Notes: generated from the letters alone by a model not told the origin. A stretch of DNA of 42,956 bases from a virus (IMGVR_UViG_2721755643_000001); one strand, 5' to 3'; positions 5,168 through 30,236 are shown, numbered from the stretch's first letter. Numbers and translations: made by a program.

Positions 5168-5467
5168 TTAGTCCTCCAAATCAATATCAACCTGGTGGTG
5201 GGCAATGGTTTCAGCCATGTACCGGATGTGTTCTGCCATGCGCTCCTGAAACTCAACATCATCATCAAATGCGTGGCTGATTGCCTGTTTATTGGCACCG
5301 TGGCGTTGCAAATGGTCGATGCAGAGCGATTCAAACAGGTGCTGAGGCAGACCTTTTTCCAGGTCGTCCGCCAGTTCCGTTTCTTTTTCTTCACGAACGA
5401 TCTGCTGGTAGTGGCGAGCCCATGCCATTTCTTCAATACGATCAAAAATCGGGTAAGCGCTCATCAC
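5168..5467 (-). CDS. Hypothetical acidic phage protein
   Basis: 99-aa ORF tightly packed in the leftward operon; overlaps the upstream gene stop by 26 nt. Confidence 0.55.
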
Positions 5468-7382
5468 TGGTCACTCCAAAATTTTCAAGCTTGTTGGCAA
5501 TCATCATTGCGATGTCAGGGATTGCAGGCGCATAGGCTATGCACGCAGGATTCGCACATAAACCGTAAACCGCCGCAATCAACACCTGTTTTTTCCAGTT
5601 GAGTTCATCTTCGCCAGTTTCATTATTGCTATCATTATGCTGATCGCTGCCAGCGTTCTCCGGTAACAAATCATCAGCTTTTTCCGTTTTCTTCGGCTCT
5701 TCTTCCTGTGCTTCATCTGGTTTTTTTTCGTCAAAAGTTTCCTGATAAGTTGCGTCTCCCATCACCGCGCCACAGTCAGGGCAGTTATCCTCGCCAGTCT
5801 GATTGCAGGGTGTTCCCTCCTCCGGTTCGCTGTTCTGGTGCTGTTTATCTTCAGTCTGTCGCACTTCATTTTCCGTTTTTTTGACTTCATTTGAGGAGAT
5901 ATGATGACCGGGAATCCATTTCGGATCATTCGGGTCGCTAATCCCTTCAACAAATTCTCCGCGAGAGGCAGCCAGTAATTTGTCTGCATCGACAGGATTT
6001 TTGGGCGGAATGTTTTTCCGGGCTTCATGGAGTTCTGCCCGCAGTTCCTGATATTTCGCATCAACAGCATTTACCTGTGACTGAGCATCCAGCGGCTGCG
6101 TGTCCTGATGATGTTCAGTTGCATCCGGTTCCACTGTTTCAGCCGTTGCCTGTTCATCTGCCATTGCGCAAGATGGTTGCGGTTTTTCTTCATCATCCTG
6201 TTTTCCTTCTTCTGTTACACGCTGCGGCATCGGGGCAGAGGAGCGACCGCAGGCAATATCCACGATTTCCGGATCAGGGTTGGCATGATCGGTTTCAGTC
6301 AGTACCTTGTTCAGATATTCAGTGACGTGCGCGGGGATGACCTCGATCCCAATTGGTGCTTCTTTTACGGACGCAACCACGATGGCGCGGGAATAATCCA
6401 GCCCGCCAGGCATGGTGATGAATTTGTCGCGGAAAACAGAAAAGGGCGGTTTATTTTCAGCGATAATTTCCTCAATGCGTTTAGCGTGTGCCGGATGAAG
6501 GTTATAGATGTCCAGATCCATTGAACGGGCCAGTACGCCAGTGGCTACGTCGCGCGCCAGTGACGTCAGATCGTGTACGAAACCTTCGCCGCGATCGGTG
6601 AGGTTTCCGCCGCCAGCATTAGCACCGGAAGCCGTGCGAGTGATGTGTGAAACACGATTACCCTTCATCCACTCTTTTGTCAGCAGTCCTCGATCGGTGT
6701 AGTCAGCGTTCAGGTATGCTTCGAAAAAAGCAGTTATCAGTCCCAGGCTTGAATTACCAGGATTAGGGAAAACTTTGTCAGTGTCACGAACCAGTTTGTG
6801 GAGATCGCGAATTTCCAGCGGGTCGAGCAGGCTGGTTTTGTGGGAAACAGCCAGGGCAGTAACAGCCGGTAGTTCTTCAGCCCGAGCAATGTGTAATGCC
6901 TGGAGTCCGTCGCGTGAAACGTGCGTTACCGGTTTTTCGCTGCCGTGTTGAGCAAGCCAGCGAATGGGCAGTTCCTGACCGGAAACTGGCAGGAGCATGT
7001 TCTCCTCAATTTCTGTCATGTCTTCGCCGTTGACGTTGGTATTGTCAGTGCTGGCTGGTTTGTCCTGAACAGAGGGAGAAGATGCGATAAATACCATTGT
7101 GATGCCATCTTCCCCGCCTTTTTCGTAACGGTTGCAGAATTCCGTATCAAACACGCCTTCTGGCGGGAGGTCATCAACAACGGGCAAATTGACGTGAACA
7201 GGTTTTTTAAAGTCATCTTCATCGTAGCCTGCATCGTCAATCGCAACAGCACCACGGGAGATGGCAATGGATAATTTTTTCGCTTCAGCCCAGTAAAAAC
7301 CGCCTTTAATACCGAGGCGTTTTCTTACTTTGTCATTTTTTGCTTCGTAATACAGTGGGTAAACTTGTTTATCGGTGCTCAT
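5442..7382 (-). CDS. Large hypothetical early protein with acidic low-complexity C-terminal third
   Basis: 646-aa ORF; C-terminal region rich in D/E/Q/K/T/P (e.g. [33 protein letters not shown]); no motif I can assign. Confidence 0.8.
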
Positions 7383-8074: not shown

Positions 8075-8623
8075 TTATTTTAAAGAAAGTAATTGTTCCA
8101 CAGTCATATTTTTAATTGCGCCCCGGTTAACAAGAGTCCATCCCTGTTTTTCCAGATAAAACCGGAAAGTCTCCAGGGTACAGACCAGTGCGCCATCAGG
8201 AACGGTTTCGGTGAATTCGACATTGCCGAATTTGTCGAAGTGAACAACCAGAGTGCGACCATCACCCGGAATCATCTTGTCAGCAGGTGGGGTGTTATTC
8301 TGGCGCAGTTCGGCCTCCATGCGGTCGAACTCAGCAATGTAGGCTTCCTTGAATGCGGCGGCTTTTTTGCCAGTGAAGCCCATCACCAGGAAAACGAAGC
8401 CGTTTTTGGTGATTTGGTACATTGGGAGTTTGCGCCCGGTTGAGTCGGTGTATTCGCTCGCCTCAAAATTGAGGGCAGTAAATTTATCTGAGCATTCAAT
8501 ATTTGCGATGGCACGTAACACATTGTCGTGTCGTTTGTGGAAGAACTCTGCAACCGCAACAGACGTAGTGACAGCGCGACCGTTTTCTACGGTTACACAA
8601 GGGTGAGAAAGGGTAGTAGCCAT
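8075..8623 (-). CDS. Phage regulatory protein, Rha family
   Basis: Motifs FHKRHDNVLRAI and MYQITKNGFVFLVMGFTGKKAAAFKEAYIAEFDRME typical of Rha; start set at Met99 of track ORF 8075..8917 because the upstream part of that ORF contains a terminator hairpin. Confidence 0.75.
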   Translation of the reverse strand: MATTLSHPCVTVENGRAVTTSVAVAEFFHKRHDNVLRAIANIECSDKFTALNFEASEYTDSTGRKLPMYQITKNGFVFLVMGFTGKKAAAFKEAYIAEFDRMEAELRQNNTPPADKMIPGDGRTLVVHFDKFGNVEFTETVPDGALVCTLETFRFYLEKQGWTLVNRGAIKNMTVEQLLSLK

Positions 8624-8789
8624 GATGGCAGCCTCCGCGATGAATTTGATTAACTCACCACCGGAGGTAGCAATCTCATGGGTGGTGAGACGTACAGGGT
8701 TGCTACAACCGGTCATCACGGAACCCGGCCAGTCTTGCGACTGCCCCGCACGCCCCACCATAATTTGAATGTGGCTGTGCATTACGCAT

Positions 8790-8817
8790 AAAAAAACCGC
8801 CTGAGCGCGGTTATGCG
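8790..8817 (-). terminator. Rho-independent terminator-like hairpin upstream of the Rha gene
   Basis: Minus strand reads AACCGC-GCTCAG-GCGGTT followed by a T7 run; flanked by a CGCATA/TATGCG outer repeat. Confidence 0.55.
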
Positions 8818-8939
8818 CCGTGAATGACTTCGGGGTAGCAATCCCGGCACCCGTTTTATGAGGTGCAGGTGCACTATAATTCCACCCGTTCTGGTTTTCA
8901 ATAGCTACATTCAACATTTTCTCTTTCCTTTCATCACCG

Positions 8940-9094
8940 AAGTGAATTTTGTGATGCGGTGCCTGGTGCCTCCAGGTGACGTTAACCAGTTAACAATTAC
9001 AGTCGGCTTTCCCACCCAAACCAATAAGGACTAACATGACTTTTAACTGTGCCGCGTGCGCTTAGCCGCATTCACCGCATCACAAAATTCACTT
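8940..9094. repeat. Perfect 22-bp inverted repeat pair flanking about 111 bp
   Basis: AAGTGAATTTTGTGATGCGGTG at 8940-8961 and its exact reverse complement at 9073-9094; the interior has a CCTGG/CCAGG hairpin and GTTAAC palindromes. Confidence 0.8.
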
Positions 9095-9204
9095 TAAAAA
9101 GGGCGGACATCAGCCAGCAATGAAACTGATGCCGCCAAAATCCACTCATAAAGTTCATCATCGGTATAGTCTGGCGCGATGATGACGGGTTCTCGTTTCT
9201 GCAT
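9094..9204 (-). CDS. Hypothetical small early-left protein (36 aa)
   Basis: ATG preceded by GAGGA at 5-nt spacing; it is the C-terminal portion of track ORF 9094..9366; peptide MQKREPVIIAPDYTDDELYEWILAASVSLLADVRPF. Confidence 0.45.
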   Translation of the reverse strand: MQKREPVIIAPDYTDDELYEWILAASVSLLADVRPF

Positions 9205-9232
9205 ACTGATTCCTCGCGTGCTGTTTCGCTTA

Positions 9233-9361
9233 TCAGCCGTTAGATTTTGCCGAACTGGAAAGCGCCTGTTTAAATTCGCTGAAGCTGAGAGCTTCTTCGC
9301 CTTCGGCAAGGCCTTCGAAGTATTCTTCGTAAGCCTTTTCCATGATTGTGTCGAAATCCAT
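9233..9361 (-). CDS. Hypothetical small acidic early-left protein (42 aa)
   Basis: Not in the track (under 60 aa); ATG preceded by AGGTGAGTGA; peptide MDFDTIMEKAYEEYFEGLAEGEEALSFSEFKQALSSSAKSNG. Confidence 0.45.
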   Translation of the reverse strand: MDFDTIMEKAYEEYFEGLAEGEEALSFSEFKQALSSSAKSNG

Positions 9362-9362
9362 A

Positions 9363-9518
9363 TCACTCACCTGAGTTTCTTTCCAGCCAGCGACGCGCGC
9401 CAGCTTCGGTTTTAAACGTTTTGCTTTTGGTATAAGTCATGGCGGTGAACGTTCCATCCTGGTTGGGGAACACGCCACATACCAGAGATTCGTTGTTGCC
9501 AAGATCGATAGTATTCAT
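9363..9518 (-). CDS. Hypothetical small early-left protein (51 aa), first gene after the leftward promoter
   Basis: Not in the track; ATG preceded by GAGG; its stop sits inside the Shine-Dalgarno of the next ORF; peptide MNTIDLGNNESLVCGVFPNQDGTFTAMTYTKSKTFKTEAGARRWLERNSGE. Confidence 0.5.
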   Translation of the reverse strand: MNTIDLGNNESLVCGVFPNQDGTFTAMTYTKSKTFKTEAGARRWLERNSGE

Positions 9519-9689
9519 GTTGACCTCATTTCCCCTTAACGCCGGGTGGCGGAACTAAAACCTGCTGCACTGCAAAATTTGAACCCTGCCGTCATGTTCT
9601 TACGCCTCGGGCTGGCTACTTAACCCCTGACCACTGCCTGGTAACTCGAAGTATTGCCCTGCGTTCTGTGGGGCGGGGTGGGTTGATGG

Positions 9690-9750
9690 ATACAATCTAC
9701 AAATTAAAATTTAATTGGTCAATATATTTATTATTAAATTTGTAATTGCG
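9690..9750. promoter_or_regulatory. OL-like operator / leftward early promoter region
   Basis: AT-rich; the 15-mer ATTAAATTTGTAATT (9733-9747) recurs exactly at 10975-10989 in the repressor-cro intergenic region; inverted TACAAAT / ATTTGTA half-sites. Confidence 0.5.
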
Positions 9751-9790
9751 AACGATTGCATTAGTCCCAAAATGGGACTATCATGCAGTT

Positions 9791-10093
9791 ATGAAGATCA
9801 TCTCAGTTAAAACACTCAGGGATTTTTGGGCGGAGAATCCCGATGCAGAACAACCGCTAAGGGCATGGGTGGATGAGGCAGCAAAAGCTGACTGGAAAAG
9901 CCCGGCAGACATTAAGGCACAATACCGAACGGCTAGTATATTGAAAAGCCGGCGTGTGGTATTCAACATAAAAGGTAATCATTACCGTTTAATTGTTGCA
10001 ATTGCGTATCAGCGAGGATGGGTATTTGTTAAATTCATCGGAAGCCACAAGGAATACGATGCCATTGATGCTGATACCATCGAACTGGAGTAA
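9791..10093 (+). CDS. higB: Type II toxin, HigB/RelE-like mRNA interferase
   Basis: About 100 aa, MKIISVKTLRDFW...YRLIVAIAYQRGWVFVKFIGSHKEYD resembles HigB; toxin-first order, 2-nt gap to an HTH antitoxin. Confidence 0.75.
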   Translation: MKIISVKTLRDFWAENPDAEQPLRAWVDEAAKADWKSPADIKAQYRTASILKSRRVVFNIKGNHYRLIVAIAYQRGWVFVKFIGSHKEYDAIDADTIELE

Positions 10094-10095
10094 GC

Positions 10096-10455
10096 ATGAA
10101 CATCAAACCTATTCGTACAGAGCAAGATTATGAAGCCGCGTTGCGTGCTGTTGAGCCTATGTTCGACAATGAACCGGAAATTAACACGCCTGAGGGGGAT
10201 TTCTTTGAGGTGATGTGTTTGCTAATAGAGGAATATGAAAAAAAACATTATCCCATTGAGCCACCATCCCCAATTGAAGCTATAAGATTTCGCATGGAAC
10301 AGCAGGGGCTGACCGTGAAAGATTTGGAACCCGCAATTGGGAAAAAAAATCGGGTTTACGAGGTGTTGAATGGCACCAGAAGCCTTACGTTACCAATGAT
10401 TCGCCGTCTTCATAATCAATTTGGTATCCCCTTGGAAAGCTTGGTGGGATTATAA
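10096..10455 (+). CDS. higA: Type II antitoxin, HigA-like (XRE-type HTH)
   Basis: 119 aa immediately downstream of the toxin; C-terminal HTH-like segment GLTVKDLEPAIGKKNRVYEVLNG. Confidence 0.75.
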   Translation: MNIKPIRTEQDYEAALRAVEPMFDNEPEINTPEGDFFEVMCLLIEEYEKKHYPIEPPSPIEAIRFRMEQQGLTVKDLEPAIGKKNRVYEVLNGTRSLTLPMIRRLHNQFGIPLESLVGL

Positions 10456-10501: not shown

Positions 10502-10894
10502 TCAGGCAGTTTTGTTTTTCTGCCGCAGTAACTCTTCAAGTTTTCGTTTATAGAAATCGCGTTTTTGCTCCATATCTCGAATGATCTGCTCTGCGTCGCT
10601 TTGAGGTAACTCATCTAAAAGCGATATGATTTTTCGTTGCTGTTCTGTAAGTTGCGGTTGGTTGTCATTAGTGGATACAGCCATCTTATCGCCGAGAGCT
10701 TCTTCTTCCATAAAGAACCAATGGACGGGATGTTGTGAGAGCTCTGCTAATTTTTCCAGTTTATCCATTCTTGGCATCACGCCTTTCAACCAACCTTGCA
10801 CGGATTGGGGTTTTACACCAAGACGTCTTCCCAGCTCTGACTGGTTTATATTCAATTCCTGCAACACCTGCTGAAGGCGTTTTACAAAGATCAT
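10502..10894 (-). CDS. Prophage repressor (CI-like, HTH_XRE)
   Basis: HTH QSELGRRLGVKPQSVQGWLKG; divergent from the Cro-like gene; ATG start with AGGGGTGG Shine-Dalgarno chosen over upstream GTG codons in the track ORF. Confidence 0.8.
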   Translation of the reverse strand: MIFVKRLQQVLQELNINQSELGRRLGVKPQSVQGWLKGVMPRMDKLEKLAELSQHPVHWFFMEEEALGDKMAVSTNDNQPQLTEQQRKIISLLDELPQSDAEQIIRDMEQKRDFYKRKLEELLRQKNKTA

Positions 10895-10939
10895 CACCAC
10901 CCCTCGAAAACTAATCTCGCAATTCTACAGAAAAAATTG

Positions 10940-11020
10940 ATAAGTGGCATTACAAATAGAAGTTGAAATTTAAAATTAAATTTGTAATTATCGATACCAT
11001 CGTAAAGTTTGGAGGGAAAC
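10940..11020. promoter_or_regulatory. OR-like operator region with divergent promoters
   Basis: Intergenic between divergent repressor and Cro-like genes; ATTACAAAT (10949-10957) and ATTTGTAAT (10980-10988) are inverted half-sites; 15-mer shared with 9733-9747. Confidence 0.55.
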
Positions 11021-11293
11021 ATGCAAAAAAGTACTCAAATAAAAATCCTGTCGATAATGAGCCAATCAGAATTAGGGCGTCGTCTTGGTAAAACTCCACA
11101 AACCATAAGTGGGTGGTTTAAAAAACGAGTTCCTGCGGAGGAGGTTATTCCTGCATGTGAGGCGCTTGACTGGGGAGTGACTCCGCATGAATTGCGCCCT
11201 GATAAATACCCTAACCCGACCGACGGTTTACCTGTTGGATGTAAGGTTAACAGATCAAATGAACCGGAGTTGATTCATGAAAATCAGGCATGA
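11021..11293 (+). CDS. Cro-like HTH regulator (YdaS-like position)
   Basis: HTH QSELGRRLGKTPQTISGW; GGAGGG Shine-Dalgarno before the ATG at 11021; first rightward gene. Confidence 0.75.
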   Translation: MQKSTQIKILSIMSQSELGRRLGKTPQTISGWFKKRVPAEEVIPACEALDWGVTPHELRPDKYPNPTDGLPVGCKVNRSNEPELIHENQA

Positions 11294-18883: not shown

Positions 18884-18960
18884 GGCCCTTTAGCTCAGTT
18901 GGTCAGAGCGAGCGACTCATAATCGCCAGGTCGCTGGTTCAAGTCCAGCAAGGGCCACCA
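18884..18960 (+). tRNA. tRNA with CAT anticodon (Ile2-like, ileX/ileZ type)
   Basis: Cloverleaf with 7-bp acceptor GGCCCTT/AAGGGCC, anticodon loop CTCATAA, T-arm GCTGG-TTCAAGT-CCAGC, encoded CCA; close to my recollection of E. coli ileX. Confidence 0.8.
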
Positions 18961-18961
18961 A

Positions 18962-19038
18962 CCACCACTAGCTCATCCGGATAGAGCATCAACCTTCTAA
19001 GTTGACGGTGCGAGGTTCGAGTCCTCGGTGGTGGGCCA
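18962..19038 (+). tRNA. tRNA-Arg (anticodon TCT)
   Basis: Acceptor CCACCAC/GTGGTGG, D-arm GCTC...GAGC, anticodon stem TCAAC/GTTGA with loop CTTCTAA, T-arm CGAGG-TTCGAGT-CCTCG, encoded CCA. Confidence 0.85.
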
Positions 19039-19040
19039 GC

Positions 19041-19116
<76 letters not shown>

Positions 19117-19119
19117 TAT

Positions 19120-19191
<72 letters not shown>

Positions 19192-29914: not shown

Positions 29915-30236
29915 AGTCACAGGTGGCAAACAGTTCCGGCAGAAGCTGAAACAGGTTGCCGCGAACCTTTCATTGGGTAAAAAACTCAAAGTGGGTTTTC
30001 TTGAGGGAGCAACTTACCCTGACGGTACGTCAGTGGCTTATATTGCCGCAGTTCAGGAGTTTGGTGGAAGAGCGGTCATACCCGCCCGTGAGCAGACGCT
30101 CCACTTTCGCTATAACGAAAAAACGGGAGAAACCGGGCACCGCTTTGTCAAAGCCGGTAAAGGGAATTTTGTTCAGGATGTGGTTATTCCTGAGCACACG
30201 GTCACCATTCCCCCCGTCCGTTCTTCCGTAAGATGA
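29904..30236 (+). CDS. Putative head-tail joining protein (HK97 gp10-like N-terminal part, tentative)
   Basis: Internal ATG of track ORF 29634..30236; [22 protein letters not shown] resembles the start of HK97 gp10-family proteins. Confidence 0.45.

Follow-up and report, generated by a model that had tools for sequence, protein, structure and literature searches.

A probable Qin-type dicBF operon start in a lambdoid Escherichia coli prophage, with a rare deletion joining ydfC to a DicF variant

The dicBF operon of the Qin prophage in E. coli K-12 has the order ydfA-ydfB-ydfC-dicF-dicB-ydfD and is read from the promoter dicBp, which the repressor DicA controls. In this operon ydfA, ydfB and ydfC are the promoter-proximal small genes, DicA acts on dicBp as CI acts on PL, and the transcript is processed by RNase III (PMC5069750; bioRxiv 10.1101/2023.04.14.536235). 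The 5' end of K-12 DicF is made by RNase E, while its 3' end is given by a terminator or by RNase III (PMC5069750; bioRxiv 10.1101/2023.04.14.536235); the 5' arm of the RNA pairs with xylR mRNA, and the 3' part with ftsZ and pykA (PMC5069750).

The DNA analysed here, called the window throughout, is a stretch of 42,956 nucleotides from a viral contig (IMGVR_UViG_2721755643_000001). We consider it very probable (roughly 0.9) that the region studied forms the beginning, on the promoter side, of a Qin-type dicBF early-left operon carried by a lambdoid E. coli prophage. A preliminary description had pointed to three short ORFs of 51, 42 and 36 aa in an interval that can also be read as one 90-aa ORF; all three are indeed present on the minus strand (Table 1). 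The 90-aa ORF has its frame in common with the 36-aa ORF, whereas its overlap with the 42-aa ORF is in the +1 frame. The genes and the sRNA of the locus are already known and annotated, and the locus is an ordinary one, made up of known genes together with a rare degenerate variant.

Table 1. Features of the locus, in window coordinates
Feature	Position	Strand	Basis or remark
cro-like gene	11009-11293	plus	
HTH repressor gene	10502-10900	minus	
Operator-like AT-rich repeats, TACAAATTAAAATTTAA / TTAAATTTGTA	9695-9747		repeat search (families D1, D2, I3, I9, I11, I17)
Leftward early promoter candidate, TTGACC-17 nt-TAGATT	9694-9722	minus	promoter scan
Untranslated leader, about 175 nt	9519-9693	minus	no nut-like boxA or boxB
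ydfA (DUF1391 family, 51-aa ORF)	9363-9518	minus	ATG start; Pfam, PHROG, RefSeq, conservation
ydfB (acidic product, 42-aa ORF)	9233-9361	minus	ATG start, 1 nt past the ydfA stop; RefSeq, PHROG
ydfB-ydfC spacer, 28 nt	9205-9232	minus	one C missing near 9217-9218 (alignments)
36-aa ORF (third mini-ORF)	9094-9204	minus	ATG start
ydfC remnant, codons 1-21/22 (72 aa in the normal gene)	9139-9204	minus	PGAP pseudogene
90-aa ORF	9094-9366	minus	GTG start
Deletion junction	9139-9141		ydfC ...GAGTGGA(T) followed by (T)TTTGGCGG from the DicF stem
DicF-variant stem-loop and intrinsic terminator	9096-9150	minus	stem 9136 to 9101, T-run 9100-9096
Long hairpin directly 3' of DicF	8940-9094	minus	22-nt perfect inverted repeat, arms 8940-8961 and 9073-9094

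Small genes, start signals and promoter

In the RefSeq/PGAP annotation of DNA with 100% identity to the window, there are a DUF1391 family protein, a "protein YdfB" and a pseudogene of ydfC. The product of ydfA (WP_001091978.1 on the identical DNA) matches Pfam PF07151 over positions 2-48 of the 48-position profile (101.7 bits, cut-off 27.3; E 1.6e-29) as well as PHROG 751, and shows 94% identity to the K-12-type YdfA. The second product, annotated as WP_000344964.1, matches PHROG 2061 (E 1.3e-27); it is the commonest YdfB sequence in the set compared below (17 of the 57 sequences) and is the same as that of K-12, the two differences in the DNA being synonymous (AGC/AGT and GAA/GAG). The third peptide matches the YdfC profile, PHROG 1744, at positions 1-22 of 68 only, and PGAP labels the identical DNA "protein YdfC, missing C-terminus" over the ydfC remnant of Table 1 alone. 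A full-length YdfC has about 72 aa and a C-terminal ...QDLKW...LSIARM region; in the window residues 1-22 are all that is left, and this ydfC is a truncated remnant and no YdfC member in good standing. A search of NCBIfam gave no model for any of the three peptides.

In E. coli, a 901-bp query around the locus finds matches in 4,660 of 5,426 complete genomes, typically twice per genome. The DUF1391 family itself is narrow: it comprises 321 clusters at 90% identity, YdaF being the name given to some, and its members are prophage proteins of Escherichia, Shigella and Salmonella, including YdaF of the Rac prophage. At several loci, the ydfA-like gene is the only one in common with the window, and other small genes come next.

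The AlphaFold2 model of YdfA, built from an alignment of 53 sequences, predicts a beta3-alpha mini-domain (pLDDT 77.8, pTM 0.41). A Foldseek search of the PDB with this model returned nothing below E 0.75 and no significant structural neighbor, and a sequence search of the PDB gave just a chance-level match to a phage head decoration protein (E 0.12). Some phage records label YdfA homologues "head-DNA stabilization protein D"; this label is dubious, and probably goes back to that chance-level match. Our best guess is that YdfA and YdfB are small early accessory proteins that modulate the host. Translation of the two may also shield the long early transcript from premature Rho termination.

The start signals were assessed by reading the sequence and by calculating the energies of duplexes with the anti-Shine-Dalgarno sequence, and both agree with the earlier statement that each short ORF has a good Shine-Dalgarno (SD) motif. 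ydfA (-8.3 kcal/mol) is preceded by UAAGGGGA and by GAGG, the latter 5 nt before the ATG and the former a stronger motif farther upstream; ydfB has AGGUGAG 3-5 nt before its ATG (-3.9 kcal/mol), and the third ORF GAGGA at a distance of 6 nt (-5.9 kcal/mol). The GTG of the 90-aa ORF had been said to lack a usable spacer, and its sole SD-like motif does end 1 nt before the start codon, where it is unusable. Stop/start coupling had been proposed for the whole set of short ORFs; it is borne out at the border of ydfA and ydfB, which reads GAG-TGA-T-ATG with a 1-nt gap between stop and start, and fails for the second and third ORFs, which lie 28 nt apart.

Upstream of ydfA, a promoter-like site is found together with operator-like repeats shared with the immunity region, which places ydfA as the first gene of the operon; the layout is the same in K-12, where the dicBp region carries, at the corresponding position, an identical -35 hexamer (TTGACC). 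By analogy, we take the promoter candidate to be the positional equivalent of dicBp and of lambda PL. The AT-rich repeats recur in the intergenic region between the repressor and cro genes (10949-10995); they look like the OL/OR operators of the prophage and would presumably be bound by the product of the HTH repressor gene.

The DicF variant and the deletion junction

Positions 9101-9150 match the Rfam family of DicF, RF00039, with 43.3 bits (E 3.1e-7), which is below the gathering score of 48; the scores elsewhere are 76.7 bits for K-12, 61.1 for the homologous locus L003 and 34.1 for an intact allele of the same type as ours in locus L005. The hairpin and its T-run are also detected by a terminator scan, and the 62-nt DicF variant occurs with at least 99% identity in 660 E. 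coli records. As expected of DicF by synteny and 3' structure, the element lies downstream of ydfC and consists of a Rho-independent terminator hairpin, after which the long hairpin follows. In intact contexts (L005, L043 and L045) the variant is preceded by its own 5' arm, ATGTTGATTACCTT; in the window, ydfC codons stand in the place of this single-stranded arm (junction 9141/9139).

RNAalifold, applied to 8 DicF alleles, found 2 base pairs with a compensatory change, with the longer allele poorly aligned; in one allele, a C-G pair of the hairpin is replaced by U-A. This result supports the basal stem; the covariation evidence is not strong. Against ftsZ (-60 to +30), RNAduplex gave -28.9 kcal/mol for the window allele, with a shuffled mean of -31.1, and -38.5 kcal/mol for K-12 DicF; the measure is crude, as it ignores intramolecular structure, and even K-12 DicF reaches just z = -1.2. 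The long hairpin that follows is homologous by alignment to the dicF-dicB intergenic hairpin of K-12; its region contains a partial match to the Rfam family STnc100, and the RNA fold of 8925-9215 has a z-score of -4.4.

The preliminary description listed the third short ORF on a par with the other two, and here our analysis leads to a different view. Every homologue loses its similarity to the window at 9140/9139 and resumes 493-1357 bp farther on, and the matches in phage records all end at 9140 as well. To the left of this point, the sequence ...TATGAGTGGAT is identical to K-12 ydfC, which goes on with GCGCCAG; to the right, TTTGGCGGCATCAGTTTCATTGCTGGCTGATGTCCGCCCTTTTTAAAGTGAATTTTGTGATG comprises the DicF stem-loop, the U-tract and the downstream flank, and T9140 itself is ambiguous between the two sides. 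The missing DNA amounts to 493-506 bp when compared to K-12-type spacing and to about 1357 bp when compared to L005, and comprised ydfC codons 23-72, a long stretch of untranslated region and DicF's 5' arm. The chimeric 36-aa ORF begins with 22 YdfC residues and continues with ILAASVSLLADVRPF, encoded by the DicF-like hairpin; its TAA stop codon lies at 9094-9096 and takes its T from the last T of the terminator T-run. From these alignments, we conclude that the third mini-ORF is the start of ydfC, its first 21-22 codons, fused by a deletion to the DicF hairpin, and is no independent gene.

A 40-nt probe across the junction was found in 7 of 5,426 E. coli genomes, at 10 places and in some genomes twice. 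An assembly artefact was considered and rejected, as 7 independent assemblies contain the junction. The rare deletion allele is a minor new variant, and it is the one element of the locus that is mildly new.

Drawing on the K-12 literature, we suggest the following course of events. Inactivation of the repressor would allow the leftward promoter to fire, and the leader would be transcribed first; one and the same transcript would then carry ydfA, ydfB, translationally coupled to ydfA through TGA-T-ATG, and the shortened ydfC (ydfC'). In this lineage, a deletion of 0.5-1.4 kb removed the ydfC codons 23-72, the untranslated region and the DicF 5' arm, and the ydfC start would therefore now drive the 36-aa chimeric ORF through the DicF-variant stem-loop, to end in the U-tract. 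Part of the transcription would stop at the DicF-type terminator, and the rest would pass on through the long hairpin, of the RNase III type, into the isrK/C4/Rha antirepressor module and the recombination genes. The transcript would probably be processed by RNase E and by RNase III, as in K-12.

The fusion is most likely a neutral or degenerative remnant, and its simplest explanation is decay in a region that is not essential. One might instead suppose that it is functional, either because translation of the 36 codons through the hairpin controls termination, and with it either the read-through that reaches the Rha antirepressor module or the amount of DicF-like sRNA produced, or because the chimeric peptide, with its hydrophobic tail ILAASVSLLADV, has an activity of its own. 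The SD motif and ATG of ydfC are kept, and the stop codon falls within the U-tract, so that the hairpin's 3' half would be covered by a ribosome terminating there; the allele is also found at several places, doubled in some genomes. RNase E prefers to cleave at RN|WUU, and the junction, GA|UUUU, resembles such a site, which we regard as putative. Against this stands the rarity of the allele, with 7 genomes as opposed to the 660 records that hold the same DicF variant. The deletion moreover removed 50 YdfC residues that are under some constraint (pN/pS 0.49 for the full-length gene) and, with the DicF 5' arm, the part that in K-12 is made by RNase E and pairs with xylR (PMC5069750), and PGAP treats what remains as a pseudogene. 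The copies of the fusion are nearly identical, hence they hold no evolutionary signal in either direction. Taken together, we find a functional fusion unlikely, for the control of termination and for the active peptide jointly.

It would be a dual-use element in which the DicF-variant terminator doubles as the last 14 codons of the 36-aa ORF and is melted by ribosomes on ydfC', an idea that we put forward with little confidence. If it were true, translation of ydfC' would be coupled to read-through into isrK/C4/Rha, or to the yield of a 5'-shortened DicF-like sRNA, and nature would have built a leader-peptide attenuator out of an sRNA gene. The ydfC-DicF deletion, in its 7 of 5,426 genomes, is a possible natural test case for the dependence of DicF biogenesis on upstream processing by RNase E.

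Reading frames, conservation and antitermination

The locus was compared with 56 homologous copies, drawn from E. coli genomes, species-representative genomes and viral contigs of IMG/VR, giving 57 sequences together with the window. ydfA (51 aa) and ydfB (42 aa) are intact in all 57, and ydfC has its full 72 aa in 48 of the 56 copies. The variable columns at codon positions 1, 2 and 3 number 3, 4 and 16 in ydfA, 7, 8 and 12 in ydfB, and 3, 2 and 5 in the first 21 codons of ydfC (11, 11 and 14 over its full length). When ydfB is read in the +1 frame, which is that of the 90-aa ORF, they number 8, 12 and 7, with a concentration at the second codon position. The short ORFs are accordingly favored over the 90-aa ORF, with pN/pS values of 0.12 for ydfA, 0.24 for ydfB and 0.18 for the 21 ydfC codons versus 1.73 for the +1 frame; each ORF is represented by 9-22 haplotypes (30 for full-length ydfC), which are closely related and were compared in non-independent pairs, so that the values are indications and not formal tests. 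The substitution pattern indicates that ydfA and ydfB are under purifying selection in their own frames. Judged by the 51- and 42-aa ORFs, which stay intact in 56 copies with third-position-biased substitution, the mini-ORF pattern exceeds what chance would produce.

These figures also bear on the idea that the mini-ORFs are not translated at all and that the region is simply the 5' part of a DicF precursor RNA. In K-12, the ydfABC segment of the RNA arises as a by-product of processing and depends for its stability on RNase E and RNase III (bioRxiv 10.1101/2023.04.14.536235), which would fit such a role. It is nonetheless very unlikely here: substitution is biased towards third positions, with pN/pS values of 0.12-0.24, there are zero frame disruptions in 56 copies although the spacer between the ORFs tolerates an indel, the SD motifs are properly spaced from the starts, and the upstream leader has no RNA-structure signal.

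The second question raised in the preliminary description was whether an N-like antiterminator is encoded here, and the results speak against it. The proteins are YdfA of the DUF1391 family, YdfB and YdfC, and the peptides of the short ORFs have no Pfam, PHROG or NCBIfam match to the N family. The translations of the ORFs are without an N-terminal Arg cluster, and there is no annotated N-like gene anywhere in the near-identical prophage of strain RMDEC332. The leftward leader, which had been singled out as the place to look for a nut-like site, is without boxA: YGCTCTTTA with up to one mismatch has no match between window positions 5848 and 10115. The leader is also unstructured; when 189 nt were folded, the result was no better than shuffles (z = +1.06), with no boxB-like structure. 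The resemblance to N is one of position only, in that these are the first genes after the leftward early promoter, and the N-like antiterminator, a speculative proposal, drops off the list of candidates.

One could still ask whether one of the small proteins YdfA, YdfB and YdfC acts as a functional analogue of N, though not homologous to it, and promotes read-through in the early-left operon. Genes of the YdfA family (ydfA of Qin, ydaF of Rac) come first after the early-left promoter, the prophage is without an annotated N, and the operon has an internal intrinsic terminator, the DicF hairpin, all of which would suit such a protein. None of the three proteins, however, has an arginine-rich motif, YdfA is modeled as a folded domain unlike the disordered N, and no nut-like boxA or boxB sites were found. 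The K-12 operon yields transcripts that end at DicF as well as RNase-processed species, and no antitermination factor is invoked to explain them (PMC5069750; bioRxiv 10.1101/2023.04.14.536235). We regard an analogue of N as highly improbable; the better view of YdfA and YdfB is that of accessory proteins given above.

The origin of the 90-aa ORF lies in the spacer between ydfB and ydfC. This spacer is 29 nt long in 52 copies and 30 nt long in 2, and only in the window, an identical relative (L001) and one other locus (3 of the 57 sequences) does it have 28 nt. With the 28-nt spacer alone, the frame ahead of the ydfC ATG is open for 54 codons; with 29 or 30 nt, a stop interrupts it 12 or 9 codons before the ATG. 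The 90-aa ORF is thus a by-product of a 1-nt deletion in the spacer. Its N-terminal half had been described as basic and of low complexity, which it is; it is the +1-frame reading of the Glu-rich ydfB, in which the GAA/GAG codons are read as AAG/AAx. The sole family match of the ORF is to the ydfC fragment, at residues 55-76.

The 90-aa GTG ORF was considered as a gene and rejected as an artefact of the longest-ORF rule, on its unusable SD, its pN/pS and its dependence on the 28-nt spacer. The preliminary description had proposed comparing frame conservation in homologous prophages, and both the frames and the spacer tell against this ORF. That it is the true gene, possibly encoding an N-like arginine/lysine-rich RNA-binding antiterminator that acts on the leftward transcript, is extremely unlikely: it is the longest ORF of the interval, has a basic half and lies soon after the leftward early promoter, in the place of lambda N, but in 54 of 57 sequences its frame is closed, its changes fall mainly on second codon positions, its SD is too close to the GTG, it belongs to no family apart from the ydfC fragment, and the leader before it has neither boxA nor structure. 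In terms of frames and indels, this reading is effectively refuted. For annotation, the point is that a longest-ORF call of 90 aa masks two real, conserved small genes, and that a single-base deletion in a spacer can give rise to a misleading long ORF.

Comparison with known systems

Lambda N and nutL share with the window their position only, N and the genes described here being the first translated genes of a repressor-controlled leftward early operon. The present locus resembles them neither in sequence nor in family, lacks an arginine-rich motif, and has neither boxA nor a boxB-like structured leader. Lambda N has 107 aa, and the small proteins described here are less than half its size.

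When compared with the DicF family (RF00039), the window has a homologous stem base (GGCGG/CCGCC), the U-tract, the flanking sequence and the synteny in common, while it differs in having coding sequence in place of the 5' arm, another loop and a longer stem (CAUCAG/CUGAUG). The loop allele is UUUCAUUGCUGG in the window and UUUUACUCCGUGAC in K-12; unlike that of K-12, the window loop is without the ACUCCG motif directed against the ftsZ RBS.

The closest relative is the Qin dicBF operon of K-12. The same first three genes are found in the same order, the two regions are collinear, and the DNA is about 95% identical from the leader through ydfA and ydfB to codon 21 of ydfC; the TGA-T-ATG signal at ydfA/ydfB, the terminator tail of DicF, CCGCCCTTTTTAAAGTGAATTTTGTGATG, and the long hairpin after DicF are likewise shared. 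Unlike K-12, the window has a ydfC that is cut at codon 21/22, has lost the untranslated region of roughly 340 nt as well as the DicF 5' arm, and carries the isrK/C4/Rha antirepressor module in place of dicB and ydfD. It also has another immunity region, with a HigBA pair between promoter and repressor. The DUF1391 paralogue ydaF of Rac, and the other DUF1391 genes of Escherichia, Shigella and Salmonella, belong to the same Pfam family as ydfA of the window; unlike the ydaF group, the copy in the window belongs to the Qin (ydfA) type, with ydfB and ydfC next in order.

DicF alleles and the dicF-dicB hairpin

Among the loci in which ydfABC is linked to DicF, at least five distinct alleles of the DicF loop can be told apart. 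The K-12-type loop accounts for 44 of the 61 copies, the remainder being made up of the type found in the window, a long U-rich type and further types. In one allele the basal stem shows a compensatory change, GGCGG/CCGCC having become GGUGG/CCACC. Because several of these alleles score below the gathering cut-off of the Rfam DicF family, annotation that relies on Rfam gives too low a count of DicF-type sRNAs.

A second Rfam family, STnc100 (RF02076), matches the region of the long dicF-dicB hairpin in K-12 and in its counterparts, at 30-42 bits and thus under the gathering score; besides the matches with coordinates in the table, it is found in two further homologous loci, L009 and L023. Given where these matches fall, what is catalogued as 'Gammaproteobacterial sRNA STnc100' appears to be the intergenic, RNase III-processed segment between dicF and dicB in dicBF-type operons.

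Features of the window, and of homologous loci used for comparison with it
Feature	Location	Strand	Remark
RecE-family exonuclease gene	5442-7382	-	PGAP, near-identical prophage: partial pseudogene, missing C-terminus
'Rha family' ORF	8075-8917	-	280 aa as annotated; region noted within, 8623-8917
C4 antisense RNA	8678-8765		Rfam, 79 bits; in N-terminal part of Rha ORF
isrK	8790-8866		Rfam, 64.8 bits; in N-terminal part of Rha ORF
c4-a1b1 target	8827-8879		Rfam, weak match; in N-terminal part of Rha ORF
STnc100 match	8948-9089	-	Rfam, sub-gathering
STnc100 match	L002 3933-4142		Rfam, sub-gathering
STnc100 match	L005 2537-2760		Rfam, sub-gathering
DicF allele site	L003 1710-1761		
Perfect palindrome	9763-9779		AGTCCCA-AAA-TGGGACT; 12 nt 5' of higB ATG
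HigB/HigA toxin-antitoxin pair	9791-10455	+	between leftward early promoter and repressor gene
Four tRNA genes	18884-19191	+	anticodons CAT, TCT, TGT, TAC; just upstream of lysis cassette

Probable start of the Rha-family antirepressor

The first ~100 codons of the Rha ORF carry the Pfam domain Phage_ASH (PF10554, residues 14-104), which overlaps strong Rfam matches. In five homologues, the variable columns at the three codon positions number 15/15/15 over codons 18-80, in contrast to 47/29/92 over the Rha domain; the N-terminal frame is nevertheless uninterrupted in all five. Within the ORF, an ATG at 8623 (MATTLSHP...) has a GGAGG 8 nt 5' of it. We suggest that the antirepressor probably starts here, preceded by an RNA module resembling that of P1 immI or the isrK of Gifsy, and that the Pfam Ash family may therefore describe, in part, translated RNA genes.

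Rearrangements and annotation of neighboring genes

Up to position 30216, the window differs from the prophage of strain RMDEC332 (NZ_CM177021.1, L104) by a total of ~19 mismatches; from about there to the end of the window the register is lost, which indicates an indel. Since the tail genes of RMDEC332 past this point hold an IS66-family element (ISCro1), the two strains may differ by its presence or absence. The early-left region has several rearrangements in addition to the ydfC-DicF deletion. The RecE-family gene is adjoined by genes for a Gam-family host-nuclease inhibitor and an AAA ATPase, not by recT.

Homologues of YdfA (DUF1391) are named 'head-DNA stabilization protein D' in several phage deposits (ON470580.1, ON470583.1, PV340562.1 and others). 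This is probably a propagated mis-annotation; the sole support we found for the label is a chance-level match to PDB 1td0, a lambda-type head decoration protein (E 0.12, 22 residues). The tRNA with anticodon CAT is assigned as tRNA-Ile by PGAP in the near-identical RMDEC332 prophage, versus Met by ARAGORN. The RMDEC332 annotation also places a hokD toxin gene near this cluster.

The HigBA pair

The region of the higB promoter and the operator-like repeats that belong to the leftward promoter overlap in a back-to-back arrangement. The palindrome in front of higB may be a HigA operator. The HigBA pair occupies a moron position, the place where lambda has rexAB.
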